A stretch of 64,000 bases of DNA from Eledone cirrhosa (Eukaryota). A model generated the notes under the pieces. It ran no database searches, was not told where the DNA came from, and was given only the letters and a program-made list of their open reading frames with translations. The translations under genes and the position numbers were made by a program. This document shows, in pieces, positions 19,431-63,006 of this stretch. Within the stretch, counting starts at the first letter, position 1. Each line of letters starts with the position of its first letter. The stretch is taken from contig OZ024749.1 of assembly GCA_964016885.1 (NCBI GenBank), positions 35,154,001-35,218,000 on the forward strand, in the 5' to 3' direction.

Positions 19431-19579
19431 AGGGCCAAGTATAATCAACCTCTCCCCCCACCACTTCACAAATGAACTTTTATATACACAGTAATGTGTA
19501 TATAATAGTAATACTGTAGTGTTTATATAAATCATAAACAAGTGCTGAGAAAAGCCGTCACTGTATGTTAGACTCTTCA

Positions 19580-22500
19580 ACACTACACCACACCACCATA
19601 CAATACACTACACCACCATACAATACACTACACCACCATACAATACATTACACCACCATACAATACACCACACCACCATACAATACACTATACCACCATA
19701 CAATACACTACACCACCATACACTACACCACACCACCATACACTACACTACACCACCATACACTACACCACACCACCATACACTACACTACACCACCATA
19801 CACTACACCACACCACCATACAATACACTACACCACCATACAATACACTACACCACCATACACTACACTACACCACCATACAATACATTACATCACCATA
19901 CAATACACCACACCACCATACAATACACTACACCACCATACAATACACTACACCACCATACAATACACTACACCACCATACACTACACCACACCACCATA
20001 CACTACACTACACCACCATACAATACACCACACCACCATACAATACACTACACCACCATACAATACACTACACCACCATACACTACACTACACCACCATA
20101 CAATACACTACACCACCATACACTACACCACACCACCATACACTACACTACACCACCATACACTACACCACACCACCATACAATACACTACACCACCATA
20201 CAATACACTACACCACCATACACTACACCACACCACCATACACTACACTACACCACCATACAATACACCACACCACCATACAATACACTACACCACCATA
20301 CACTACACCACACCACCATACACTACACTACACCACCATACAATACACCACACCACCATACAATACACTACACCACCATACAATACACTACACCACCATA
20401 CACTACACTACACCACCATACAATACACTACACCACCATACACTACACCACACCACCATACACTACACTACACCACCATACACTACACCACACCACCATA
20501 CAATACACTACACCACCATACAATACACTACACCACCATACACTACACCACACCACCATACACTACACTACACCACCATACAATACACCACACCACCATA
20601 CAATACACTACACCACCATACACTACACCACACCACCATACACTACACTACACCACCATACAATACACTACACCACCATACAATACATACACCACCATAC
20701 AATACACTACACCACACCACCATACAATACACTACACCACAATACATTACACCACACCACCATACAATACACTACACTACACCACCATACAATACATTAC
20801 ACCACACCACCATACAATACACTACATCACTATACAATACACTACACCACCATACAATACACCACACCACCATACAATACATTACACCACACCACCATAC
20901 AATACACTACACCACTATACAATACACTACACCACCATACAATACACTACACCACACCACCATACAATACACTACACCACTATACAATACACTACACCAC
21001 CATACAATACACTACACTACACCACCATACAATACACTACACCACACCACCATACAATACATTACACCACACCACCATACAATACACTACACCACCATAC
21101 AATACACTACACTACACCACCATACAATACACTACACTACACCACCATACAATACACTACACCACACCACCATACAATACAATACACTACACCACCATAC
21201 AATACACTACACCACACCACCATACAATACACCACACTACCATACAATACACTACACTACACCACACCACTATACAATACACCACACACCATACAATACA
21301 CTACACCACACCACCATACAATACACTACACCACACCACCATACAATACACTACATCACTATACAATACACTACACCACAATACACTACACTACACCACC
21401 ATACAATACACTACACTACACCACCATACAATATACTACACCACCATACAATACACTACACCACCATACAATACACTACACTACACCACCATACAATACA
21501 ATACACTACACCACACCACCATACAATACACTACACTACCATACAATACACTACCCCACACCACCATACAATACACTACACCTCACCACCATACAATACA
21601 TTACGCTACACCACCATACAATACAATACAATACACTACACCACCATACAATACACTACACCACACCACCATACAATACACTACACCACACCACCATACA
21701 ATACACTACACTACACCACCATACAATACAATACAATACACTACACCACCATACAATACACTACACCACACCACCATACAATACACTACACCACACCACC
21801 ATGCAATACACTACACCACACCACCATACAATACACTACACTACAACACAATACAATACACTACACCACCATTCAATACAATACACCACACACCATACAA
21901 TACACTACACCACACCACCATACAATACACTACACTACACCACCATACAATACACTACACTACACCACCATACAATACTCTACACTACACCACAATACAC
22001 TACACTACACCACAATACACTACACTACACCACCATACAATACACTACACTACACTACACCACCTTACACTACACCGCACCCCCATACAATACACTACAC
22101 CACCATACAATACACCGCACCCCCATACAATAAACTACACTACACCACCATACACTACACTACACCACCATACAATACATTACATCACCATACAATACAC
22201 CACACCACCATACAATACACTACACCACCATACAATACACTACACCACCATACAATACACTACACCACCATACACTACACCACACCACCATACACTACAC
22301 TACACCACCATACAATACACCACACCACCATACAATACACTACACCACCATACAATACACTACACCACCATACACTACACTACACCACCATACAATACAC
22401 TACACCACCATACACTACACCACACCACCATACACTACACTACACCACCATACACTACACTACACCACCATACAATACACTACACCACCATACAATACAC

Positions 22501-25500
22501 TACACCACCATACACTACACCACACCACCATACACTACACTACACCACCATACAATACACCACACCACCATACAATACACTACACCACCATACACTACAC
22601 CACACCACCATACACTACACTACACCACCATACAATACACTACACCACCATACAATACACTACACCACCATACAATACACTACACCACACCACCATACAA
22701 TACACTACACCACAATACATTACACCACACCACCATACAATACACTACACCACCATACAACACATTACACCACACCACCATACAATACACTACATCACTA
22801 TACAATACACTACACCACCATACAATACACCACACCACCATACAATACATTACACCACACCACCATACAATACACTACACCACTATACAATACACTACAC
22901 CACCATACAATACACTACACCACACCACCATACAATACACTACACCACTATACAATACACTACACCACCATACAATACACTACACTACACCACCATACAA
23001 TACACTACACCACACCACCATACAATACATTACACCACACCACCATACAATACACTACACCACCATACAATACACTACACTACACCACCATACAATACAC
23101 TACACTACACCACCATACAATACACTACACTACACCACCATACAATACACTACACCACCATACAATACACCACCCCACCATACAATACACTACACCACAC
23201 CACCATACAATACACCACACTACCATACAATACACTACACTACACCACACCACTATACAATACACCACACACCATACAATACACTACACCACACCACCAT
23301 ACAATACACTACACCACACCATCATACAATACACTACACCACCATACAATACACTACACCACAATACACTACACTACACCACCATACAATACACTACACT
23401 ACACCACCATACAATATACTACACCAGCATACAATACACTACACCACCATACAATACACTACACTACACCACCATACAATACACTACACTACACCACCAT
23501 ACAATACACTACACTACACCACCATACAATACAATACACTACACCACACCACCATACAATACACTACACTACACCACCATACAATACACTACCCCACACC
23601 ACCATACAATACACTACACCACACCACCATACAATACACTACGCTACACCACCATACAATACAATACAATACAATACACCACCATACAATACACTACACC
23701 ACACCACCATACAATACACTACACCACACCACCATACAATACACTACACCACACCACCATACAATACACTACACTACACCACAACACAATACAATACACT
23801 ACACCACCATTCAATACAATACACCACACACCATACAATACACTACACCACACCACCATACAATACACTACACTACACCACCATACAATACACTACACCA
23901 GCATACAATACACTACACTACACCACCATACAATACTCTACACTACACCACAATACACTACACTACACCACAATACACTACACTACACCACCATACAATA
24001 CACTACACTACACTACACCGCACCCCCATACAATACACTACACCACCATACAATACACCGCACCCCCATACAATAAACTACACTACACCACCATACACTA
24101 CACTACACCACCATACAATACATTACATCACCATACAATACACCACACCACCATACAATACACTACACCACCATACAATACACTACACCACCATACAATA
24201 CACTACACCGCACCCCCATACAATACACTACACCACCATACAATACACTACACCACCATACAATACACTACACCGCCATACAATACACTACACCACCATA
24301 CAATACACTACACCGCACCCCCATACAATACACTACACCACCATACAATACACTACACCACCATACAATACATTACACCACCATACAATACACCACACCA
24401 CCATACAATACACTATACCACCATACAATACACTACACCACCATACACTACACCACACCACCATACACTACACTACACCACCATACACTACACCACACCA
24501 CCATACACTACACTACACCACCATACACTACACCACACCACCATACAATACACTACACCACCATACAATACACTACACCACCATACACTACACTACACCA
24601 CCATACAATACATTACATCACCATACAATACACCACACCACCATACAATACACTACACCACCATACAATACACTACACCACCATACAATACACTACACCA
24701 CCATACACTACACCACACCACCATACACTACACTACACCACCATACAATACACCACACCACCATACAATACACTACACCACCATACAATACACTACACCA
24801 CCATACACTACACTACACCACCATACAATACACTACACCACCATACACTACACCACACCACCATACACTACACTACACCACCATACACTACACCACACCA
24901 CCATACAATACACTACACCACCATACAATACACTACACCACCATACACTACACCACACCACCATACACTACACTACACCACCATACAATACACCACACCA
25001 CCATACAATACACTACACCACCATACACTACACCACACCACCATACACTACACTACACCACCATACAATACACCACACCACCATACAATACACTACACCA
25101 CCATACAATACACTACACCACCATACACTACACTACACCACCATACAATACACTACACCACCATACACTACACCACACCACCATACACTACACTACACCA
25201 CCATACACTACACCACACCACCATACAATACACTACACCACCATACAATACACTACACCACCATACACTACACCACACCACCATACACTACACTACACCA
25301 CCATACAATACACCACACCACCATACAATACACTACACCACCATACACTACACCACACCACCATACACTACACTACACCACCATACAATACACTACACCA
25401 CCATACAATACATACACCACCATACAATACACTACACCACACCACCATACAATACACTACACCACAATACATTACACCACACCACCATACAATACACTAC

Positions 25501-28500
25501 ACTACACCACCATACAATACATTACACCACACCACCATACAATACACTACATCACTATACAATACACTACACCACCATACAATACACCACACCACCATAC
25601 AATACATTACACCACACCACCATACAATACACTACACCACTATACAATACACTACACCACCATACAATACACTACACCACACCACCATACAATACACTAC
25701 ACCACTATACAATACACTACACCACCATACAATACACTACACTACACCACCATACAATACACTACACCACACCACCATACAATACATTACACCACACCAC
25801 CATACAATACACTACACCACCATACAATACACTACACTACACCACCATACAATACACTACACTACACCACCATACAATACACTACACCACACCACCATAC
25901 AATACACCACACTACCATACAATACACTACACTACACCACACCACTATACAATACACCACACACCATACAATACACTACACCACACCACCATACAATACA
26001 CTACACCACACCACCATACAATACACTACATCACTATACAATACACTACACCACAATACACTACACTACACCACCATACAATACACTACACTACACCACC
26101 ATACAATATACTACACCACCATACAATACACTACACCACCATACAATACACTACACTACACCACCATACAATACACTACACTACACCACCATACAATACA
26201 ATACACTACACCACACCACCATACAATACACTACACTACCATACAATACACTACCCCACACCACCATACAATACACTACACCTCACCACCATACAATACA
26301 CTACGCTACACCACCATACAATACAATACAATACACTACACCACCATACAATACACTACACCACACCACCATACAATACACTACACCACACCACCATACA
26401 ATACACTACACTACACCACCATACAATACAATACAATACACTACACCACCATACAATACACTACACCACACCACCATACAATACACTACACCACACCACC
26501 ATACAATACACTACACCACACCACCATACAATACACTACACTACAACACAATACAATACACTACACCACCATTCAATACAATACACCACACACCATACAA
26601 TACACTACACCACACCACCATACAATACACTACACTACACCACCATACAATACACTACACTACACCACCATACAATACTCTACACTACACCACAATACAC
26701 TACACTACACCACAATACACTACACTACACCACCATACAATACACTACACTACACTACACCACCTTACACTACACCGCACCCCCATACAATACACTACAC
26801 CACCATACAATACACCGCACCCCCATACAATAAACTACACTACACCACCATACACTACACTACACCACCATACAATACATTACATCACCATACAATACAC
26901 CACACCACCATACAATACACTACACCACCATACAATACACTACACCACCATACAATACACTACACCACCATACACTACACCACACCACCATACACTACAC
27001 TACACCACCATACAATACACCACACCACCATACAATACACTACACCACCATACAATACACTACACCACCATACACTACACTACACCACCATACAATACAC
27101 TACACCACCATACACTACACCACACCACCATACACTACACTACACCACCATACACTACACTACACCACCATACAATACACTACACCACCATACAATACAC
27201 TACACCACCATACACTACACCACACCACCATACACTACACTACACCACCATACAATACACCACACCACCATACAATACACTACACCACCATACACTACAC
27301 CACACCACCATACACTACACTACACCACCATACAATACACTACACCACCATACAATACACTACACCACCATACAATACACTACACCACACCACCATACAA
27401 TACACTACACCACAATACATTACACCACACCACCATACAATACACTACACCACCATACAACACATTACACCACACCACCATACAATACACTACATCACTA
27501 TACAATACACTACACCACCATACAATACACCACACCACCATACAATACATTACACCACACCACCATACAATACACTACACCACTATACAATACACTACAC
27601 CACCATACAATACACTACACCACACCACCATACAATACACTACACCACTATACAATACACTACACCACCATACAATACACTACACTACACCACCATACAA
27701 TACAATACACCACACCACCATACAATACATTACACCACACCACCATACAATACACTACACCACCATACAATACACTACACTACACCACCATACAATACAC
27801 TACACTACACCACCATACAATACACTACACTACACCACCATACAATACACTACACCACCATACAATACACCACCCCACCATACAATACACTACACCACAC
27901 CACCATACAATACACCACACTACCATACAATACACTACACTACACCACACCACTATACAATACACCACACACCATACAATACACTACACCACACCACCAT
28001 ACAATACACTACACCACACCATCATACAATACACTACACCACCATACAATACACTACACCACAATACACTACACTACACCACCATACAATACACTACACT
28101 ACACCACCATACAATATACTACACCAGCATACAATACACTACACCACCATACAATACACTACACTACACCACCATACAATACACTACACTACACCACCAT
28201 ACAATACACTACACTACACCACCATACAATACAATACACTACACCACACCACCATACAATACACTACACTACACCACCATACAATACACTACCCCACACC
28301 ACCATACAATACACTACACCACACCACCATACAATACACTACGCTACACCACCATACAATACAATACAATACAATACACCACCATACAATACACTACACC
28401 ACACCACCATACAATACACTACACCACACCACCATACAATACACTACACCACACCACCATACAATACACTACACTACACCACAACACAATACAATACACT

Positions 28501-31500
28501 ACACCACCATTCAATACAATACACCACACACCATACAATACACTACACCACACCACCATACAATACACTACACTACACCACCATACAATACACTACACCA
28601 GCATACAATACACTACACTACACCACCATACAATACTCTACACTACACCACAATACACTACACTACACCACAATACACTACACTACACCACCATACAATA
28701 CACTACACTACACTACACCGCACCCCCATACAATACACTACACCACCATACAATACACCGCACCCCCATACAATAAACTACACTACACCACCATACAATA
28801 CACTACACCACCATACAATTCACTACACCACACCCCCATACAATACACTACACCACCATACAATACACTACACCCCCATACAATACACTACACCACCATA
28901 CAATACACTACACCACCATACAATACACTACACCGCACCCCCATACAATACACTACACCACCATACAATACACTACACCACCATACAATACACTACACCG
29001 CACCCCCATACAATACACTACACCACCATACAATACACTACACCACCATACAATACACTACACCGCCATACAATACACTACACCACCATACAATACACTA
29101 CACCGCACCCCCATACAATACACTACACCACCATACAATACACTACACCACCATACAATACACTACACCACCTTACACTACACCGCACCCCCATACAATA
29201 CACTACACCACCATACAATACACTACACCACCATACAATACACTACACTACACCACCTTACACTACACCGCACCCCCATACAATACACTACACCCCCATA
29301 CAATACACTACACCACCATACAATACACTACACCACACCCCCATACAATACACTACACCACCTTACACTACACCGCACCCCCATACTATACACTACACCA
29401 CCATACAATACACTACACCACCATACAATACACTACACCACACCCCCATACAATACACTACACCACCATACAATACACTACACCACCATACAATACACTA
29501 CACCACCATACAATACACTACACCACCATACAATACACTACACTACACCACCATACAATACACTACACCACCATACAATACACTACACTACACCACCATA
29601 CAATACACTACACCACACCCCCATACAATACACTACACCACCATACAATACACTACACCACCATACAATACACTACACCCCCATACAATACACTACACCA
29701 CCATACAATACACTACACCCCCATACAATACACTACACCACCTTACACTACACCGCACCCCCATACAATACACTACACCACCATACAATACAATACACTA
29801 CACCACCATACAATACACTACACTACACCACCATACAATACACTACACCACACCCCCATACAATACACTACATCACCTTACACTACACCGCACCCCCATA
29901 CAATACTATACACCACCTTACACTACACCGCACCCCCATACAATACACTACACCACAATACACTACACCACCATACAATACAATACACTACACCACCATA
30001 CAATACACTACACCACCATACAATACACTACACCCCCATACAATACACTACACCACCATACAATACACTACACCACACCCCCATACAATACACTACACCA
30101 CCTTACACTACACCGCACCCCCATACAATACACTACACCACCATACAATACACTACACCACCATACAATACACTACACCACCATACAATACACTACACTA
30201 CACCACCATACAATACACTACACCACCATACAATACACTACACCCCCATACAATACACTACACCACCATACAATACACTACACCACACCCCCATACAATA
30301 CACTACACCACCTTACACTACACCGCACCCCCATACAATACACTACACCACCATACAATACACTACACCACCATACAATACACTACACCACCATACAATA
30401 CACTACACCACCTTACACTACACTACACCACCATACAATACACTACACCACCATACAATACACTACACCACCATACAATACACTACACCACCTTACACTA
30501 CACTACACCACCATACAATACACTACACCACCATACAATACACTACACCACCATACAATACACTACACCACCATACAATACACTACACCACCATACAATA
30601 CACTACACCACCATACAATACACTACACCACCATACAATACGCTACACCACCATACAATACACTACACCACCATACAATACACTACACCACCTTACACTA
30701 CACTACACCACCATACAATACACTACACCACCATACAATACACTACACCACCATACACTACACTACACCACCTTACACTACACTACACCACCATACAATA
30801 CACTACACCACCATACAATACACTACACCACACCCCCATACAATACACTACACCACCTTACACTACACCGCACCCCCATACAATACACTACACCACCATA
30901 CAATACACTACACCACACCCCCATACAATACACTACACCACCTTACACTACACCGCACCCCCATACAATACACTACACCCCCATACAATACACTACACCA
31001 CCATACAATACACTACACCACACCCCCATACAATACACTACACCACCTTACACTACACTACACCACCATACAATACACTACACCACCATACAATACACTA
31101 CACTACACCACCATACAATACACTACACCACACCCCCATACAATACACTACACCACCTTACACTACACCGCACCCCCATACAATACACTACACCACCATA
31201 CAATACACTACACCACCATACAATACACTACACCACCATACAATACACTACACCACACCCCCATACAATACACTACACCCCCATACAATACACTACACCA
31301 CCATACAATACACTACACCACACCCCCATACAATACACTACACCCCCATACAATACACTACACCACCATACAATACACTACACCACCATACAATACACTA
31401 CACTACACCACCATACAATACACTACACCACCATACAATACACTACACCACCATACACTACACTACACCACCATACAATACACTACACCCCCATACAATA

Positions 31501-34500
31501 CACTACACCCCCATACAATACACTACACCACCATACAATACACTACACCACCATACAATACACTACACCACCATACAATACACTACACCACACCCCCATA
31601 CAATACACTACACCCCCATACAATACACTACACCACCATACAATACACTACACCACCATACAATACACTACACTACACCACCATACAATACACTACACCA
31701 CCATACAATACACTACACCACCAAAACAATACACCCCATACAATACACTACACCACCATACAATACACTACACCACCATACAATACACTACACCACACCC
31801 CCATACAATACACTACACCCCCATACAATACACTACACCACCATACAATACACTACACCACCATACAATACACTACACCACACCCCCATACAATACACTA
31901 CACCACCTTACACTACACCACCATACAATACAATACACTACACCACCATACAATACACTACACCACCATACAATACACTACACCCCCATACAATACACTA
32001 CACCACCATACAATACACTACACCACACCCCCATACAATACACTACACCACCTTACACTACACCGCACCCCCATACAATACACTACACCACCATACAATA
32101 CACTACACCACCATACAATACACTACACCACCATACAATACACTACACTACACCACCATACAATACACTACACCACCATACAATACACTACACCCCCATA
32201 CAATACACTACACCACCATACAATACACTACACCACACCCCCATACAATACACTACACCACCTTACACTACACCGCACCCCCATACAATACACTACACCA
32301 CCATACAATACACTACACCACCATACAATACACTACACCACCATACAATACACTACACCACCTTACACTACACTACACCACCATACAATACACTACACCA
32401 CCATACAATACACTACACCACCATACAATACACTACACCACCTTACACTACACTACACCACCATACAATACACTACACCACCATACAATACACTACACCA
32501 CCATACAATACACTACACCACCATACAATACACTACACCACCATACAATACACTACACCACCATACAATACACTACACCACCATACAATACACTACACCA
32601 CCATACAATACACTACACCACCATACAATACACTACACCACCTTACACTACACTACACCACCATACAATACACTACACCACCATACAATACACTACACCA
32701 CCATACACTACACTACACCACCTTACACTACACTACACCACCATACAATACACTACACCACCATACAATACACTACACCACACCCCCATACAATACACTA
32801 CACCACCTTACACTACACCGCACCCCCATACAATACACTACACCACCATACAATACACTACACCACACCCCCATACAATACACTACACCACCTTACACTA
32901 CACCGCACCCCCATACAATACACTACACCCCCATACAATACACTACACCACCATACAATACACTACACCACACCCCCATACAATACACTACACCACCTTA
33001 CACTACACTACACCACCATACAATACACTACACCACACCCCCATACAATACACTACACCACCTTACACTACACCGCACCCCCATACAATACACTACACCA
33101 CCATACAATACACTACACCACCATACAATACACTACACCACCATACAATACACTACACCACACCCCCATACAATACACTACACCCCCATACAATACACTA
33201 CACCACCATACAATACACTACACCACACCCCCATACAATACACTACACCCCCATACAATACACTACACCACCATACAATACACTACACCACCATACAATA
33301 CACTACACTACACCACCATACAATACACTACACCACCATACAATACACTACACCACCATACACTACACTACACCACCATACAATACACTACACCCCCATA
33401 CAATACACTACACCCCCATACAATACACTACACCACCATACAATACACTACACCACCATACAATACACTACACCACCATACAATACACTACACCACACCC
33501 CCATACAATACACTACACCCCCATACAATACACTACACCACCATACAATACACTACACCACCATACAATACACTACACTACACCACCATACAATACACTA
33601 CACCACCATACAATACACTACACCACCATACAATACACCCCATACAATACACTACACCACCATACAATACACTACACCACCATACAATACACTACACCAC
33701 ACCCCCATACAATACACTACACCCCCATACAATACACTACACCACCATACAATACACTACACCACCATACAATACACTACACCACACCCCCATACAATAC
33801 ACTACACCACCTTACACTACACCGCACCCCCATACAATACACTACACCACCATACAATACACTACACCACCATACAATACACTACACCACCATACAATAC
33901 ACTACACCACACCCCCATACAATACACTACACCACCTTACACTACACCGCACCCCCATACAATACACTACACCCCCATACAATACACTACACCACCATAC
34001 AATACACCACACCCCCATAAATACACTACACCACACCCCCATACACTACACCACCATACACTACACCACACCCCCATACAATACACTACACTACACCACC
34101 ATACACTACACCACCATACAATACACTACACCCCCATACAATACACTACACCACCATACAATACACCGCACCCCCATACAATACACTACACCCCCATACA
34201 ATACACTACACCACCATACACTACACCACACCCCCATACAATACACTACACCACCATACAATACACTACACCACCATACAATACACTACACCACCATACA
34301 ATACACCACACCCCCATACAATACACTACACCACCATACAATACACTACACCACCATACAATACACTACACCACCATACAATACACTACACCACCATACA
34401 ATACACCACACCCCCATACAATACACTACACCACCATACAATACACTACACCACCATACAATACACTACACCACCATACAATACACTACACCACCATACA

Positions 34501-34655
34501 ATACACCACACCCCCATACAATACACTACACCACCATACAATACACTACACCACCATACAATACACTACACCACCATACAATACACTACACCACCATACA
34601 ATACACCACACCCCCATACAATACACTACACCACCATACAATACACTACACCACA
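19580..34655. repeat. ~15 kb satellite of 5-mer-based 20-nt units (cactacaccaccatacaata) with higher-order duplications
   Basis: Directly visible. The plus strand is almost G-free. Variant markers recur at offsets of ~4700-4725 and ~1950. Confidence 0.98.
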
Positions 34656-34699
34656 ACACACAACACATCCCACCCCTATATTATACATAACACCCTATA

Positions 34700-35235
34700 T
34701 ATGTTTGTTGTAATGTGTGTCAGTGTGTGTGTGTTAGTGTGTGTATGTTTGTGTGTGTATGTTTGTGTGTGTGTGTTGTAATGTGTCAGTGTGTGTGTGT
34801 TTTAATGTGTCAGTGTGTGTGTATGTTTGTGTGTGTGTGTGTGTGTGTATGTCAGTGTGTGTTGTAATGTGCGTCAGTGTGTGTGTTAGTGTGTATGTGT
34901 GTATGTCAGTGTGTGTTGTAATATGTGTCAGTGTGTGTGTGTTGTAATGTGTCAGTGTGTGTGTCAGTATGTCAGTGTGTGTCAGTGTGTGTGTGTATGT
35001 CAGTGTATGTTGTAATGTGTGTCAGTGTGTGTGCGTTGTAATGTGTGTGTATATGTCAGTGTGTGTTGTAATGTGTGTCAGTGTATGTTGTAATGTGTGT
35101 CATTGTGTGTGTGTGTATGTCAGTGTGTTGTAATGTGTGTCAGTGTATGTATGTCCAGTGTGTGTGTGTCAGTGTATGTCAGTGTGTGTCAGTGTATGTG
35201 GCAGTGTGTGTATGTCAGTGAATGTCAGTGTGTGT
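34700..35235. repeat. GT-rich degenerate tandem repeat (gtgtgtcagt/gttgtaat)
   Basis: Directly visible, immediately after the satellite. Confidence 0.9.
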
Positions 35236-38330: not shown

Positions 38331-38346
38331 TCAATTTTCAACTCAC

Positions 38347-39017
38347 CTTCCTCGTAACAAGAGAGAAAGTTTCTCCCCACATGGAGTTATTCCTTCTGTT
38401 GCGTAAACACTTCCTTGGCGCAGGTAGACAAGTCTGCCTACCCGCGTTAACGATTTGAATTCTATACGGGACACACCGAGTGGTTTAAACAATTTGGCGT
38501 AAGCATCTTCAAAATCTTTATGTATACGGACGGGATACATGCTGTAGGCCAAATAGAATATGTGCCCAATATTGATACAAAAGAAGGCAGAGTTCCAAGC
38601 GAGTATGTCAGGCACACATATAAAAACTCCAGCCCAGAGGATGTAGAATAGAAAAGTGAAAAGGAGGAGACATCGGAGAAATAGTATATGATATTGGAAG
38701 CTGATTGGGGTGAGGAAAGAGAAGGCCATACACAAACTTCCCAGCTGAAACAGAATATGCTGCACATCTTGCCAGACATTACAAGATTCGGTGCCATTAA
38801 ATGTTGTCCAGTTTAATGTGGTGTTCACTAGAATTGGCTGTAGTGTCTGTGTTAAGAAAGTGCTGTTCACTAATCCTTCAGCTAGGCTGCTGCTGCTGCC
38901 ACTACTGCTGCTATCACCAGTGGTGGTGGTGGTGATGTCAGTGGTAGCGGCGGCGGTGGTGATGTTAAATGACATCGTTTGACTGAGATGTGACACACAG
39001 CAACTGGTCTGGAACAT
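38347..39017 (-). CDS. BVES: Popeye domain-containing protein (BVES/POPDC family), coding exon 1: S/T-rich ectodomain, 3 TM helices, start of Popeye domain
   Basis: ORF reads C..WQDVQHILFQLGSLC...FLRCLL...WAGVFICVPDILAWN..F..IN.GHIFYLAYSMYPVRI...Y.KLFKPLGVSRIEF...YATEGITP..EKLSLLLRG, matching POPDC family motifs. Acceptor ttccag precedes 39034, with an in-frame TGA just before ATG 39017 (alternative ATG at 38975). Donor AG|GTGAGT at 38347/38346, phase 2. The symbol is family-level; paralog identity is not resolvable. Confidence 0.93.
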
Positions 39018-45995: not shown

Positions 45996-46149
45996 TGCAT
46001 TTCTAGTCGATGACGACAGTGTCAACATCGTCCTAATCATCATTATAATAATAATTATAAGTAGCCAGTTTACACTGTAAAGTGGTTGTCTTGGTGCCGT
46101 GACATATATATATATACAAATATGCATATATACATGTATATATATATGC

Positions 46150-46243
<94 letters not shown>

Positions 46244-46373
46244 GCATATATACATATATATATGCATATATACATATATGCATATATACATATATATATG
46301 CATATATACATATATATATATATATATATTTATATATATGCATATATACATATATATATATATATATATATGC

Positions 46374-46419
<46 letters not shown>

Positions 46420-46532
46420 TCATCATCACGGACGTGAAATGGTGATGATGATGATGATATATATCTATATATATATCTATGCATATATATATATATGCAT
46501 ATATATATATATATATGCATATATACATATAC

Positions 46533-47545
46533 AGAATACTAGCTCATTCCATTGCACAGATGGTTCTATAGAAATAGTGGACAGTTTCCGTTACCTGGGT
46601 GACCAAATCAGCAGTGGGGGAGGGTGCTCTGAAAGTACAGTAGCTAGAGTCAGAACTGGATGGAAAAAGTTCAGAGAGCTTATACCACTATTAGCCGCTA
46701 AAGGGTTCTCCCTAAAAATGAAAGGCAGGCTGTATGATGCCTGCATACGAACAGCAATGTTGCATGGCAGTGAGACCTGGGCATTGTGTGCAGAGGATAT
46801 ACGCAGACTGGAGAGGAATGAAGCTTAAATGCTCCGCTGGATGTGTAATAGTAATATACGTGAACGGCAAAGCATAAACGAACTAAGGGAAAAATTAGAA
46901 ATAAGAGGGATCAGATGTTGTTTACTCGAGAGAAGACTACGTTGGTATGGTCACGTGATGCGCATGAAAGATGACAGCTGTATAAAAAAGTGCAGGGCAA
47001 TAAAAATAGACGGTAGCCACGGAGTAGGCAGACCTAGAAAAACCTGGGACGACTTGATAAATTCCTACCTCACACACTTATACCTCTCCAAGACAATGTC
47101 AATGGACCGAGATCTTTGGCGCTACACAGTAATAGAGAAGACCCGCCTTACCTAAGTACAAAGTGAAACCTATTACAGTCAGTAGGCACCTCTAACAAAA
47201 TACACCCCCGTCCCACCACCCCCACTCCATCCACACCACCCCTTTCAATGTAAAGTTATGTTGGTACCACAACATCCAGCCCGAAACAAATGAGGTCGTG
47301 TAGGTGTCACGACAAAAAAAAACACACAGTCCACGCTGTAATGTGGCCATGTAGGTAACATGGTAAAAACCTCCCAGTTCCACACTGTAAATGTGGTTGG
47401 TGTTAGGAAGGGCATCCAGCTGTAGAAAACCCGCCAGACAGTCCTATGCGACAACCACTCTTGCCTCAAGTGGGAAAACTCCCGTCCAAACCCATGCAAG
47501 CGTGGAATATGGATGTTAAACGATGATGATGATGACGATGATGAT
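46533..47545 (+). mobile_element. 5'-truncated copy of the same RTE LINE family
   Basis: Nearly identical to 59982-61000. A premature TAA at 46826-46828 replaces TGC. (GAT)n tail and TA flanks. Confidence 0.92.
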
Positions 47546-55046: not shown

Positions 55047-55131
55047 GGTCTGACGAGCTTTTGATTCCAGAGTTGGGCCAGATCAATACAGATCAAACCA
55101 TGAGCTGATCAATAGCGTAACACGCGTCACC
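55047..55131 (+). ncRNA. Type I hammerhead ribozyme, probably inactivated (GAAA->GTAA)
   Basis: GGT-CTGACGA-GCTtTTGAT...ATCAAtAGC-GTAA-CACGC-GTC/ACC, followed by AATAAA and (TA)n. Confidence 0.65.
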
Positions 55132-55213
55132 AATCAATAAATGTAATGAAGGCTTAACCAATTGTCCTTGTATTATATATATATATATATCATCCTCCTC
55201 CTCTTCATCAGAG

Positions 55214-56110
55214 AAGGAGCTAGTATCCTGTGGGCACTTGCTACTTATTACACCCGAGCATCGGCCACATATAAAATCTATGTTCTTAGATAGTTTACCT
55301 GTGATCCCACTACATCTTTTATGTACCCATAGTTTGCATTTGGGACATAAAATGGAATTTCTACCTACTCCTTTCCTACACACTGAGCATGGCCATTTCC
55401 CAGAGGGCACCTGTGCCCTATTTTCCTTTCTACAAACTAGAACTTTAGTCTTAGACAAGTTAACTTTAAGGCCTTTTGATTCTAGGCCATGCTTCCATGT
55501 TTGGAATGTCTTCTCTAGTTCAGCCATAGATTCAGCTATGAGAGTTAGATCATCTGCGTATAGGAGTTCCCATGGACAGCCGGTCTTAAACTCCTCTGTT
55601 ATAACCTGAAAGGCAATAATAAATAGGAGAGGGCTAAGGACAGAGCCTTGATCAACACCAACTTTTACACTAAATTCTTCATTACATTCATTGTTAATTC
55701 TAACGTTACTGACTGTTTCTTTATACATGGCTTGTATAGCTCTCAAGCCATTCATCTACACCTAGTTTTCTAAGAGCCCACCAGATAATGGAGTGGGGGA
55801 CTCTATCAAAGGCTTTCTCCAGGTCTACAAAAGCTAAGTAGAGGGGTTTGCTTTTAGCTAGGTACTTCTCCTGTAGTTGTCGTACAAGGATAAGAGCGTC
55901 TGTGGTATTTTTACCTGACACAGACCCAAACTGTATTTCATCTAGATCAATTCGCTCTTTGATTAGTTGCGACCTTCATGACCTGGTCAACTAACTTAAT
56001 GCCTCTATAGTTTCCCCTATCTAGAGCATCCCCTTTACCCTTGTAGCAGTTAATGATGATGCTGCTACACCAGTCTTTTGGTATGACCCCATTCTCTATT
56101 ACTTGGTTTA
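55214..56110 (-). mobile_element. Internal RT fragment of the same RTE LINE family (frameshifted)
   Basis: [45 protein letters not shown] and the Cys-rich insert. Confidence 0.9.
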
Positions 56111-57145: not shown

Positions 57146-57560
57146 GAAAGTTTGTTTATTGATGAGAGATCATGACATTTGAACTGAAATTATCTCTAAA
57201 AATAGAGAAAATATCTGATTTGTGAGAAAATGTCTGATTTTAGCAATTGTTAGTTTAATATAAACTGTTGTTGTGTCGTATTGAGGGGGAATATAATAGG
57301 ATTTTATTTCCTCTGCTGAGACACTAAAAATGGACAAAGGTTGGGGAAGGATTAATAATACTTCAAAGAAATTGATAATTTAATCAATCTCCAAAAGCCC
57401 ATCATCATCCATCACAATCATCATCATTGTCATCATCACCATCATAGACTAGAATAAAAAAGACTAGAATAAAAAATAATAAATAATAAATAAAAATAAG
57501 AATAGTCCATCTATGTCAAAATTGTTCACAAGTGTTTTTAGGCCTCATATCATGTTACCT

Positions 57561-57630
57561 TATTTTATCTGATGAGGACACAATTTTTGTCCCAGGATGA
57601 TGTTGTTTTCGAAATGCGCATAATAAAATA
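57561..57630 (+). ncRNA. Type I hammerhead ribozyme
   Basis: TATTTTAT-CTGATGA-GGAcACAAT...GTTGTtTTC-GAAA-TGCGCA-TA/ATAAAATA. Perfect 8-bp stem I and palindromic stem III (ATGCGCAT). AUA cleavage after 57622. (TA)n starts ~45 nt downstream. Confidence 0.75.
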
Positions 57631-58147: not shown

Positions 58148-58178
<31 letters not shown>

Positions 58179-58263
58179 AAAATTGAGATGAGCAGAACAA
58201 ACAAACATTAAACAATCCTTTAAATAAATTAAAAAATGATTTAAATATCTAGCTGTTCGTAAT

Positions 58264-58343
58264 GCTATTACCGGCGGTTTCACTTTACAAAAGATTAGAA
58301 ATTCAGAGAATTTCTAACGGAAAAGTAAAGTTCATCAGATAGC
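58264..58343 (-). ncRNA. Type I hammerhead ribozyme, inverted copy of the 58809 motif
   Basis: Same motif on the minus strand, with a fully Watson-Crick stem I (GCTAT/ATAGC). Cleavage between 58269 and 58268. Confidence 0.8.
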
Positions 58344-58808
58344 TATTTCCATCCTATAGACTAAGTCCCACAGTCTGCAAATATAATGCCAACTACCAGC
58401 TCGTATGAGTTATGGCCGTTAAAGTGACCCACACGTGAACTGGCCGCTAGTGAAAGCGGGAATATTACAGACGTGCTGATGGCTTTGCTCCTAAAAAAAT
58501 AGCAGTATCTCAAATTAGTACCATAGAACAACAATTATATTATAGACACCCTATATATGTCTATGGGTACTTAGTACTCAGATAGATATTGACCTCATTT
58601 TATATATTCTCCAATCTATGTAGAGAAAAAATTTGTTGTTGCTTACTGCTATTTTTTTAGCAGCAAAGCCATCAACACGTCTGTAATATTCCCGCTTTCA
58701 CTAGCGGCCAGTTCACGTGTGGGTCACTTTAATGGCCATAACTCATACGAGCTGGTAGTTGGCATTATATTTGCAGACCGTGGGACTTAGTCCTATAGGA
58801 TGGAAATA

Positions 58809-58888
58809 GTTATCTGATGAACTTTACTTTTCCGTTAGAAATTCTCTGAATTTCTAATCTTTTGTAAAGTGAAACCGCCGGTAATAGC
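58809..58888 (+). ncRNA. Type I hammerhead ribozyme, intact core
   Basis: GTTAT-CTGATGA-ACTTTAC...(TTAGAAATT/AATTTCTAA)...GTAAAGT-GAAA-CCGCCGG-TA/ATAGC. Cleavage after 58883. Confidence 0.8.
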
Positions 58889-59074
58889 ATTACGAACAGG
58901 TAGATATTTAAATCATTTTTTAATTTATTTAAAGGATTGTTTAATGTTTGTTTGTTCTGCTCATCTCAATTTTTATAGTTCTGGTATCTCAAATTAGTAC
59001 CAAAGAACAACAATTATATTATAGACACCCTATATATCTCTATGGGTACTTAGTACTCAGAGAGATATTTACCT

Positions 59075-59139
<65 letters not shown>

Positions 59140-59464: not shown

Positions 59465-59911
59465 AGTTTAGCGAGGTTTTTTATATGAAATCGTGTGTCG
59501 AAACAGATATTGTTATATTTGGGGAGGGTCATATTTGCGTAATATTGCCAGAATTAATAACAGAACACACTCACTGTTTGGTTGGTTTTCGCTTCTCGCT
59601 GTCTGAATAAAAAATGGCGTAGACATACAACACAACAGGAGGAACAATGAATATAACACCACTGATGATGTTGCAGATGTGCAACGAAAGATTTATGTAA
59701 ATTATGTAAACTATATATATGTGTTTGTGTCTATATTGTATCTGTATTATTTTTGACCGCCGGTCAGTCAATGGCAACATTGAGGACCGAGTAAGTTAGA
59801 TCGCAGATATAAAAGACAGCGAGAAGCGAAAACCAACCAAACAGTGAGTGTGTTCTGTTATTAATTCTGGCAATATTACGCAAATATGACCCTCCCCAAA
59901 TATAACAATAT
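59465..59911. mobile_element. Inverted-repeat element (98-bp arms) between TA arrays; MITE or Penelope-like inversion product
   Basis: 59507-59604 and 59814-59911 are reverse complements around a 209-nt spacer, which contains CTGATGA-t-GTTGCA-gatg-TGCAAC-GAAA. Confidence 0.65.
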
Positions 59912-59983: not shown

Positions 59984-61473
59984 CATCATCATCATCATCA
60001 TCATCATCGTTTAACGTCCATGTTCCACGCTTGCATGGGTTTGGACGGGAGTTTTCCCACTTGAGGCAAGAGTGGTTGTCTTGCTCGCATAGGACTGTCT
60101 GGCGGGTTTTCTACAGCTGGATGCCCTTCCTAACACCAACCACATTTACAGTGTGGGACTGGGAGGTTTTTACCGTGTTGCCTACACGGCCACATTACAG
60201 CATGGACTGTGTGTTTTTTTTTTGTCGTGACACCTACACGATCTCATTTGTTTCGGCCTGGATGTTGTGGCACCAACATAATTTTACATTGAAAGGGGCA
60301 GTGTTGATGAGGTGGGGGTGGTGGGACGGGGGTGTATTTTGTTAGAGATGCCTACTGACTGTAGTAGGTTTTACTTTGTATTTAGGTAAGGCGGGTCTTC
60401 TCTATTACTGAGTGCCGCCAAAGATCTCGGTCCAGTGACATTGTCTTGGAGAGGTGTAAGTGTGTGAGGTCGGAGTTTATCAGGTCGTCCCAGGTTTTTC
60501 TGGGTCTGCCTACCCCGTGGCTACCGTCTATCTTTATTGCCCTGCACTTTTTTATACAGCTGTCGTCTTTCATGCGCATTATGTGACCATACCAACGTAG
60601 CCTTCTCTCGAGTAAACAACATCTGATCCCTCTTATTTCTAATTTTTCCCTTAGTTCGTTTATGCTTTGCCGTTCGCGTATATTACTATTACACATCCAG
60701 CGGAGCATGCAAGCTTCGTTCCTCTCTAGTCTGCGTATATCCTCTGCACACAATGCCCAGGTCTCACTGCCATGCAACATTGCTGTTCGTATGCAGGCAT
60801 CATACAGCCTGCCTTTCATTTTTAGGGAGAACCCTTTAGCGGCTAATAGTGGTATAAGCTCTCTGAACTTTTTCCATCCAGTTCTGACTCTAGCTACTGT
60901 ACTTTCAGAGCACCCTCCCCCACTGCTGATTTTGTCACCCAGGTAACGGAAACTGTCCACTATTTCTATAGAACCCTCTGCGCAATTGAAAGAGCTAGTA
61001 TTTTGTGGGCACTTGCTGCTACTTATTGCACCAGAGAACCGGCCACATATAAAATCTATGTTCTTAGTTAGCTTACCTATGATCCCACTACATCTTTTAT
61101 GCACCCATACTTTGCATTTGGGACATAAAATGGAGTTTCTACCTACGCCTTTCCTACACACTGAGCATGGCCATTTCCCAGAAGGGACTGGTGCCTTATT
61201 TTCTTTCCTACAAACTAGAACTTTAGTCTTAGCCAGGTTAATTTTAAGGCCTTTTGATTCTAAGCCGTGCTTCCATGTTTGGAATTTCTTCTCTAGCTCG
61301 GCCATTGATTCAGCTATGAGCGTTAGATCATCTGCGTATAGGAGTTCCCATGGGCAGCCGGTCTTGAACTCCACTGTTATAGCCTGAAGGGCAATAATAA
61401 ATAGTAGGGGGCTAAGAACAGAGCCCTGATGAACACCAACTTTTACGCTAAACTCTTCACTATATTCGTTGTT
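59982..61473 (-). mobile_element. 5'-truncated RTE-clade LINE (RT C-terminal half, Cys-rich insert, C-terminal domain, 3'UTR, (GAT)n tail)
   Basis: Open frame with [37 protein letters not shown]. Ends in ggacgttaaacgatgatgat. (TA)n on both sides. Confidence 0.92.
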
Positions 61474-61497
61474 ATATATATATACATATATATATAC

Positions 61498-61562
<65 letters not shown>

Positions 61563-61567
61563 AACAC

Positions 61568-61618
<51 letters not shown>

Positions 61619-61619
61619 C

Positions 61620-62471
61620 ATATGAAATACGTCCCTTCACGCACAAGGCACCAAGGTACGCATGTATTGTCCAACCAAGTGCCAATGTGGTTCAATGGCG
61701 GGTTAATAAATTAACGAGCCAGAACAAATATAAACAAGGTTTAGTAAATAATGAAAAAGTTTCAAAATAAATTTTAAAAAATTGACTTTACCTACTATAG
61801 TTACCTTTACCGATCGGTTTCGAATCCCAAAAATAAAACGGAGACCATATGGCCTTCGTTGCAAAGAGAGATTCTCGTCAGAAGGTTCTTTTCATTCAAA
61901 GAATATAAAATTCCTGAATTTAAATCACAAACTAGCGCTATCAAAAACTGTTCCTGGGATGAGAGTGGATGATGTAGAACAGGTTTATCAAGGGCCGTAG
62001 CAAAGATAGAGGCAAAAGGAGGTAGGTCAAACTAGCCACCGCTGTTGCCAGCAGCAGTCGGAATGACCCGGTTTGTTCTCAACGTTAGTGGAGGTAGTAG
62101 TAATATGAAATACGTCCCTTCACGCACAAGGCGCCAAGGTACGCATGTATTGTCCAACCAAGTGCCAATGTGGTTCAATGGCGGGTTAATAAATTAACGA
62201 GCCAGAACAAATATAAACAAGGTTTAGTAAATAATGAAAAAGTTTCAAAATAAATTTTAAAAAATTGACTTTACCTACTATAGTTACCTTTACCGATCGG
62301 TTTCGAATCCCAAAAATAAAACGGAGACCATACGGCCTTCGTTGCAAAGAGAGATTCTCGTTTTATTTTTGGGATTCGAAACCGATCGGTAAAGGTAACT
62401 ATAGTAGGTAAAGTCAATTTTTTAAAATTTATTTTGAAACTTTTTCATTATTTACTAAACCTTGTTTATAT
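61620..62471 (-). mobile_element. Non-autonomous Penelope-like/retrozyme-like element, family B (partial tandem, 483-nt unit, + terminal inversion)
   Basis: 61620-61878 is directly repeated at 62103-62361 (offset 483). 62359-62471 is the reverse complement of 62211-62323. Contains a hammerhead and has (TA)n on both sides. Confidence 0.72.
61803..61886 (-). ncRNA. Type I hammerhead ribozyme, intact core
   Basis: Minus strand reads ACCTT-CTGACGA-GAATC...GATTC-GAAA-CCGATCGG-TA/AAGGT. Stem I 5 bp, stem II 5 bp, palindromic stem III (ACCGATCGGT). GUA cleavage between 61808 and 61807. Confidence 0.85.
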
Positions 62472-62484
62472 ATATACATATATA

Positions 62485-62521
<37 letters not shown>

Positions 62522-62547
62522 ATATATATATATATATATATATAAAC

Positions 62548-62582
<35 letters not shown>

Positions 62583-62585
62583 AAC

Positions 62586-62626
<41 letters not shown>

Positions 62627-62666
62627 AACATATATATATATATAAACATATATATATATATATATA

Positions 62667-62726
<60 letters not shown>

Positions 62727-63006
62727 TATATTTTTAATGTTCTTCAGTTTTTATTGTTTGTCTTTTTCGCTCTCACCTTCCTTTTCTCTCCTTACCCTTC
62801 TTTCTCCCACTCCCCCTCTCTTTCTCTCACTACCACCCCTCTCTCTCCTGACTCTTCCCTCCTCTCTGCACCCTTCCTTCTTCCCTTCTATCAATTTTGA
62901 ATTTTGGAAACAAACACTGTCCATTAAATTCCCCAATAATGTGCCGATCAATAACTGTGTAGATCAGAAATTGTTTTTTTTTCCTACCACAAGGTGTTCT
63001 CACTCA

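Follow-up and report, generated by a model that had tools for sequence, protein, structure and literature searches.

How retrozymes enter animal genomes is a question to which the main texts of PMC4209133, PMC7229834 and Li et al. 2026 give a proposed, not demonstrated, answer, namely a Penelope enzyme acting on a circular template. An insertion between two TA tracts in the 64,000-nt stretch of Eledone cirrhosa DNA analysed here (the window) raises this question for a single copy: what kind of element is it, how were its two opposed arms primed, and was the template an RNA circle? The insertion is real and young and represents one copy of a new family within a known class, the retrozymes. Very probably, the class is that of a non-autonomous, Penelope-mobilised retrozyme. 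The features of the locus are collected in Table 1.

Table 1. Features of the insertion and its flanks (positions in the window; strand refers to the ribozyme sense)
Feature	Position	Strand	Basis
Left (TA)n-type microsatellite flank, likely insertion target	61474..61619	.	sequence
Long arm, 742 nt, equal to 1.54 units of 483 nt	61620..62361	-	
Repeat copy 1, 259 nt, with both apparently derived CpG changes (61650, 61850)	61620..61878	-	
Complete type I hammerhead motif, predicted cut 61808/61807	61803..61886	-	
Single-copy part of the unit, 224 nt, non-coding	61879..62102	-	
Repeat copy 2, 259 nt, 5'-truncated within the CUGACGA box; predicted cut site 62291/62290 retained	62103..62361	-	
CGT microhomology, head-to-head joint	62359..62361	.	
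Short arm, 113 nt, sense on the + strand	62359..62471	+	
Right (TA)n-type microsatellite flank	62472..62731	.	sequence

Self-comparison of the sequence gave a 259-nt direct repeat (61620-61878 and 62103-62361) with a spacing of 483 nt, the copies of which differ at two positions (61650 A versus 62133 G, and 61850 T versus 62333 C). The arm in the opposite orientation, 62359-62471, is the reverse complement of 62211-62323 and of 61728-61840, with 113/113 identical positions, and the CGT at 62359-62361 is common to both arms at their joint. TA-type tracts flank the insertion on both sides. An earlier reading made from the letters alone (the sequence-only reading) had described the 259-nt repeats 483 nt apart, the 113-nt inverted arm and the CGT joint, and its coordinates proved exact to the base. 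It had also placed the truncation of the second repeat copy inside the CUGACGA box, and this copy indeed ends at the equivalent of 61878 and keeps ACGA, without CUG. The exact joint at 62361 is taken from the assembly, the locus being spanned by no read or contig among those listed. The 3' end of the long arm at 61620 is the outer start site, which lies 188 nt 3' of the predicted cut at an AUAU word matching the TA flank. The 3' end of the short arm corresponds to unit position 62211/61728. This inner start site lies 80 nt 3' of the cut, at a distance of 108 nt from the outer one. Within the short arm is the substrate half of the hammerhead, with the cut-site equivalent at 62391/62392. All three cut-site junctions of the insertion, two in the long arm and one in the short, are crossed without indel or scar. 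The unit has a GC content of 39.5%, and its head-to-tail junction 62102/62103 was found again in other copies of the family.

The 483-nt stretch occurs, whole or in part, in 7 of the 11 public sequencing runs found, none of which is recorded as RNA. Runs X1, X4, X5, X6, X7, X9 and X10 were aligned to the unit, and X2, X3, X8 and X11 were left out. On 511 nt, 943 contigs of X1 and 2,076 reads of X10 align, 82-100% alike, as a multi-copy family; these totals are not equal to copy number, and the summed contig depth was left unused. Many variants were seen, with 1-nt indels marking subfamilies. Contig 15 of X4 (organism B) is 513 nt long, aligns gap-free on 61746-62258 with 8 differences, and corresponds to one 483-nt turn plus 30 nt. 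We take it to be a closed assembly-graph loop, assuming k=31, which fits the 31-letter words of the search tool. A closed loop would imply more than one unit head to tail, though no circular molecule is thereby shown. Among the 24 pieces listed (there are 2,114 further), three bridge the junction 62102/62103 with at least 31 letters on each side, i.e., contig 15 of X4 and two X5 contigs. A joint in X6 that goes back 483 nt was rejected as evidence for the period; it arises from the reference cut point and lies wholly inside the repeat. The period, for which the sequence-only reading had suggested a check of constancy, is a real head-to-tail period of the family by the bridged junctions and the 483+30 contig, although the 1-nt indels show that it is not strictly constant.

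The longest stop-free stretch in the six frames spans 81 codons, the three longest (3/3) matched no Pfam family, and no reading frame for RT and GIY-YIG was found in the unit. Because of the bridged junctions, the 483+30 contig and the lack of a reading frame or Pfam match, the unit is, on these sequences, a non-coding tandem unit, and not merely the 3' end of a long coding element, a possibility that the sequence-only reading had itself raised.

On the minus strand, the hammerhead comprises a 5-bp stem I (61886-61882 with 61803-61807), the core boxes CUGACGA (61881-61875) and GAAA (61821-61818), a 7-bp stem II with one U.G pair that closes a 39-nt loop, and a stem III made by the 10-nt palindrome ACCGATCGGT (61818-61809). 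The triplet is GUA, and the cut is predicted between 61808 and 61807. A type I descriptor matched the real 483-nt unit and 0 of 20,000 dinucleotide shuffles on either strand. Rfam gave no match at the gathering score in the whole 64-kb window, and none of the 26 weak matches in the window at E<=10 was to a hammerhead model, for which the 39-nt loop II is the likely cause. The weak miRNA-like Rfam matches were attributed to hairpins and TA tracts. The motif had been called a perfect hammerhead; it is complete and canonical in form, but the lack of an Rfam hammerhead match speaks against 'perfect'. Two common stem II variants (61868, 61827) retain their pairs, and no variant was seen on a hammerhead core base among the 40 differences listed per set (138 and 53 further). 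Runs X6 and X7, with 1 and 5 contigs, are too few for covariation.

Computed folding gave the lone motif a probability of 0.015 for the active monomer fold; in the circular monomer, the computed values were 0.84-0.88 for stem II and 0.05-0.07 for stem I. A lone motif is predicted to fold mostly into inactive forms. Pairing of the palindrome between two copies was computed at -16.6 kcal/mol. The double hammerhead, evaluated on a hand-built structure, has an energy of -59.8 kcal/mol vs. -49.2 for two best-folded monomers, that is 10.6 lower, and the best two-strand fold (-61.0 kcal/mol) is non-catalytic and lies 1.2 below the double hammerhead. These predicted energies fit the dimer model for animal type I hammerheads in PMC4209133. 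A subfamily with one extra base in the stem III palindrome (61812-61813) was observed in runs X1, X4, X9 and X10, where it accounts for 64/571 reads in X10. The extra base may give a 4-bp hairpin with a 3-nt loop, perhaps competent as a monomer, and the subfamily is a natural control for the dimer model. The copy studied here does not contain two consecutive complete hammerheads, as copy 2 is without CUG and the 5' strand of stem I. Its read-through RNA was computed to form a hairpin of -176 kcal/mol covering the upstream cut site. Because there is only one whole ribozyme and the predicted 113-bp hairpin buries the upstream cut site, this copy is likely inactive, a dead end. The circular monomer folds only modestly better than shuffles (z -2.3 vs. 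60 shuffles; -0.8 for the opposite strand), and a viroid-like rod was ruled out.

Both differences between the repeat copies have the form of CpG decay in copy 1 (CG to CA and CG to TG). CpG accounts for 26 of the 259 repeat bases, and the chance that both differences fall there is approximately 0.01. The base at 61850 is C in 350/351 reads of X9 and 358/364 of X10, and the organism-B contig of X4 agrees with copy 2 at 62133, its 8 differences all lying elsewhere. Judged from these family alleles, both changes would be derived in copy 1. Because both differences appear to be derived CpG changes in copy 1, the two repeat copies were likely identical at the time of insertion and the insertion is likely young, in agreement with the recent age that had been proposed from the small number of differences.

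At the level of the family, the sequence characteristics are those of a non-LTR retrozyme. As in the metazoan non-LTR retrozymes, the unit is short, GC-poor, non-coding and tandem, there is one type I hammerhead per unit, and the family is multi-copy; Penelope-like mobilisation via circular RNA has been proposed there too (PMC7229834; Li et al. 2026). The unit of 483 nt is just above the range of 150-450 bp given for these elements in 2020 (Cervera and de la Pena 2020, PMC7229834) and within that of 51-972 bp given in 2026 (Li, Clavereau and Pollet 2026). Differences from them are the 39-nt stem II loop with no match to an Rfam model and the single whole ribozyme, with which this copy is not 'active' by the 2026 definition of at least two consecutive complete hammerheads (Li et al. 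2026). Among Xenopus dimers, cleavage was seen in only 1/9 (Li et al. 2026, bioRxiv 10.64898/2026.07.22.740005). Neither a cephalopod retrozyme nor a two-armed retrozyme insertion was found among the papers listed in the literature searches. A 2026 repeat annotation of Octopus vulgaris has 31 Penelope-like families in one table, and the word 'ribozyme' is absent from its main text (PMC13282606). In annotation, retrozyme insertions of this kind can readily be mistaken for inverted-repeat DNA transposons or satellites.

The sequence-only reading had linked the insertion to Penelope-like elements, and the anatomy bears this out: a partial tandem with an adjacent inverted 5'-truncated copy is described for Penelope-like insertions, together with a preference for (TA)n (PMC8557442). 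With endonuclease-bearing Penelope-like elements (PMC8557442, PMC8969392, PMC11167929) the insertion shares the partial tandem (pLTR), the adjacent inverted 5'-truncated copy, a microsatellite target and two offset 3' ends, but the 483-nt unit has no RT or GIY-YIG reading frame. The published Penelope 'tail', defined by two internal RT start sites, is 30-40 nt long (PMC11167929), whereas the end offset here is 108 nt, about three times that length, and in a neighbouring family 109 nt. As in the pLTR hammerheads (PMC4209133), helix II is long, here with 7 bp, helix I is short, here with 5 bp, and helix III is palindromic. Unlike them, the motif has no unpaired base separating positions 9 and 10.1, and its palindrome takes up the full 10 nt of helix III, where theirs is minimal. 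In vitro, cleavage by hammerheads of the PLE type is weak (PMC4209133). MRC1 and other non-autonomous Chlamys elements (PMC8557442) resemble the insertion in being non-autonomous and Penelope-like, with pLTRs and head-to-tail insertions. Yet they are green algal and belong to the N-terminal-endonuclease group without canonical hammerheads (Craig et al., PMC8557442), and for them similarity to an autonomous partner has been demonstrated.

A second hammerhead family lies in (TA)n at 58175-59086, with a period of 479 and two head-to-head arms. It has complete hammerheads at 58813 (+) and 58338 (-) with the palindrome-like stem III ACCGCCGGT, its ends are at +94 and +203, 109 nt apart and both at TA words, and its arms meet at a 3-nt microhomology, GTA. 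In both families the inner end is located 0-2 nt before the word GTTCTGG, which falls outside the short arm; by a post hoc count, 140 of 25,760 window pairs have a common word that long. No significant common word was found at the outer ends of the two families. The alignment of the 483-nt and 479-nt units did not score above the best of 300 shuffles, and homology beyond the ribozyme core is unsupported.

Other elements were observed in the window. A third hammerhead-like motif at 57559-57630 (+), beside a TA tract, has an 8-bp stem I, CUGAUGA, a weak 3-bp stem II, the palindromic stem III ATGCGCAT and an AUA triplet, and is possibly decayed. A TA-embedded element at 59466-59910 has inverted arms of approximately 100 nt and a CUGAUGA...GAAA motif without a canonical stem III; its ends differ by approximately 41 nt, close to the published Penelope tail. 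A 5'-truncated non-LTR retrotransposon fragment at 60382-61473 (-) adjoins the left TA tract with its truncated end, and related fragments lie near 46103-46828 and 55093-55755. We take its reverse transcriptase to be of the RTE type. It was rejected as the mobiliser, having RVT_1 and PHD-like matches and no GIY-YIG match in the part present. Farther away, a short-unit satellite of approximately 15 kb with a strong strand skew (GC skew near -0.99) covers 19540-34700, and an exon of a Popeye-domain (BVES/POPDC) gene is present at 38343-38975 (-). The two best of the 6 matches to its translation are proteins of Octopus bimaculoides (87% identity) and Argonauta hians (78%), which makes an octopod host likely.

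On the ribozyme strand both arms of the insertion point their 3' ends outward, at +188 for the long and +80 for the short arm, 108 nt apart. Each outer end sits at a TA word that matches the flank, and the unit has only 5 TA words. At 61727, beside the inner start site, most aligned copies of runs X1, X9 and X10 carry T (122/220 reads in X10), which extends the TA word at this site. X10 reads with the first mate on the plus strand became fewer at both sites, the outer (117 to 81) and the inner (112 to 76), and the other read class was flat (114/117 and 150/144, respectively). Going by the inferred restriction ends, the first class would be the one expected to contain the left-flank junction. 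In X9, depth at the outer site changed from 147 to 112. A loose end in TA was seen at 62103 in one X1 contig; for the inner site there is none among the 16 rows listed (161 further). The depth of X10 changes abruptly elsewhere too: the first class rises from 145 to 171 at 62135-62140, and both classes show steps at 62087-62100 and at 62116-62120. In X9 and X10, read ends pile up at 61661, 61709, 61773, 61780, 61912, 61917 and 62195. These piles coincide with CATG or AATT words and were discarded as restriction-digest ends, the enzyme pair being deduced from the pile positions; there was no pile at the predicted cut site in these two DNA runs. The outer ends are likely fixed at two sites rather than randomly permuted. 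The circularly permuted start points anticipated in the sequence-only reading are not what the X10 read-class steps and the near-equal end spacing in the neighbouring family suggest.

The short arm had been explained as a terminal fold-back: after single priming, the nascent cDNA would fold back at CGT, be extended by 113 nt as a hairpin, and join the TA target by microhomology. This predicts the same sequence, with a short arm wholly inside the long arm and 100% identical to it, an exact 3-nt microhomology at the joint, and an end that coincides with a TA word, of which the unit has only 5. Still, the hairpin would have passed a nearer TA word at +9 before ending at +76-80, the neighbouring family has almost the same end spacing (109 vs. 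108 nt) with GTTCTGG beyond the inner end, and one read class steps down at the inner site. We therefore consider the fold-back unlikely; by the end spacing, GTTCTGG and the read steps, the 113-nt stretch is more readily explained as a second arm with a priming event of its own, and two separately primed arms are probable given a Penelope-mobilised retrozyme. TA tracts are unstable, and a piece of hammerhead satellite could also have been moved or rearranged within the tract at the DNA level, by template switching, unequal exchange or rolling-circle DNA copying. The instability of the tract and the microhomology at all three joints would agree with this, and local tandem amplification once an element has inserted is considered possible by Li et al. 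2026. We nevertheless regard such an event as very improbable, because the ribozyme-sense 3' ends of both arms face outward at a similar distance 3' of the cut in two families that are barely alignable, and no terminal inverted repeats of the DNA-transposon type are seen, the two ends differing by 108 nt. It is hardly credible that the unit merely terminates a long coding Penelope element, or that the inversion arose as an artefact of assembly or of read fold-back. Contig depth does fall from 61900 to 62080, as 5' truncation or replacement would give, and no listed record spans the locus. Against it stand the gap-free 483+30 contig in organism B, the junctions bridged in two runs and the lack of a reading frame, by which the reading as a long coding element is largely refuted at the family level. 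A fold-back chimera, moreover, is at odds with the unique right flank, which is unlike the left flank in either orientation, and other copies have strand-switch joints at 61755/62023 (3 reads) and 61894/62180 (10 reads), with 2 starts each.

With two separately primed arms as the preferred reading, the template remains to be weighed. With a linear, cleaved monomer as template, three exact jumps would be required, and with a circle or an uncleaved multimer none. That Penelope enzymes copy more than one unit from an RNA circle had been suggested in 2014 (PMC4209133), and the sequence-only reading had adopted a circular template. The scar-free long arm of more than one unit is compatible with it, but an uncleaved multimer RNA yields the same sequence, and this short copy alone cannot separate the two. 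In the multimer version, a linear, uncleaved transcript of a tandem array serves in the same two-armed Penelope insertion, and a hammerhead inherited from a pLTR need not cut first. In the Anolis element, whose protein is the one Penelope protein tested in vitro, unprocessed, uncleaved RNA was the main substrate, insertion was unchanged by ribozyme mutants, and no RNA-seq ends were reported at the cut site (PMC11167929). The mostly inactive monomer fold (0.015) would fit such a template, and a homogeneous source array would likewise yield identical copies. On the other hand, the 742-nt arm would need two successive cut sites left intact although two hammerheads can pair in cis (10.6 kcal/mol), and related animal retrozymes accumulate largely as circles, the main RNA form in coral, mussel and axolotl (PMC7229834). 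On balance, we lean slightly towards the circle over the uncleaved multimer, which as a full explanation of the locus appears rather unlikely.

The mechanism that we propose would start with transcription of a tandem source copy on the hammerhead strand. Two hammerheads would then pair via the 10-nt palindrome, as the computed energies suggest, and cut out 483-nt monomers that a host ligase closes; a circle on its own, having no partner, is expected to remain largely uncleaved. A borrowed Penelope-like reverse transcriptase/endonuclease would cut (TA)n and prime from both ends of the cut, and reverse transcription would start inside the RNA at +188 and +80, where the observed ends coincide with AUAU/UAUAU words. 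One cDNA, of 742 nt, would cross two cut sites and the other, of 113 nt, a single one, with head-to-head joining of both at CGT, a presumed order of events for the observed layout. The two CpG changes would have arisen later in copy 1, to judge from the family alleles. Taken as a whole, with a Penelope enzyme, two primed arms and an RNA circle, this mechanism is put forward as somewhat less than an even proposition.

More tentatively still, the insertion possibly records a pair of Penelope enzymes that primed from the two ends of a cleaved TA tract, at two sites set by the sequence of one hammerhead-processed RNA circle. One of the enzymes might then have travelled more than 1.5 times round, the inner site being marked by the GTTCTGG common to the two families. 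Being young, with two defined start sites, a ribozyme predicted to act only as a dimer and a common start-site word, this copy offers a substrate on which the in vitro Penelope assay by Frangieh et al. could be run. If the reading is true, the locus would provide genomic evidence for a step proposed, not demonstrated, in the literature searched, and GTTCTGG would be a candidate cis signal.
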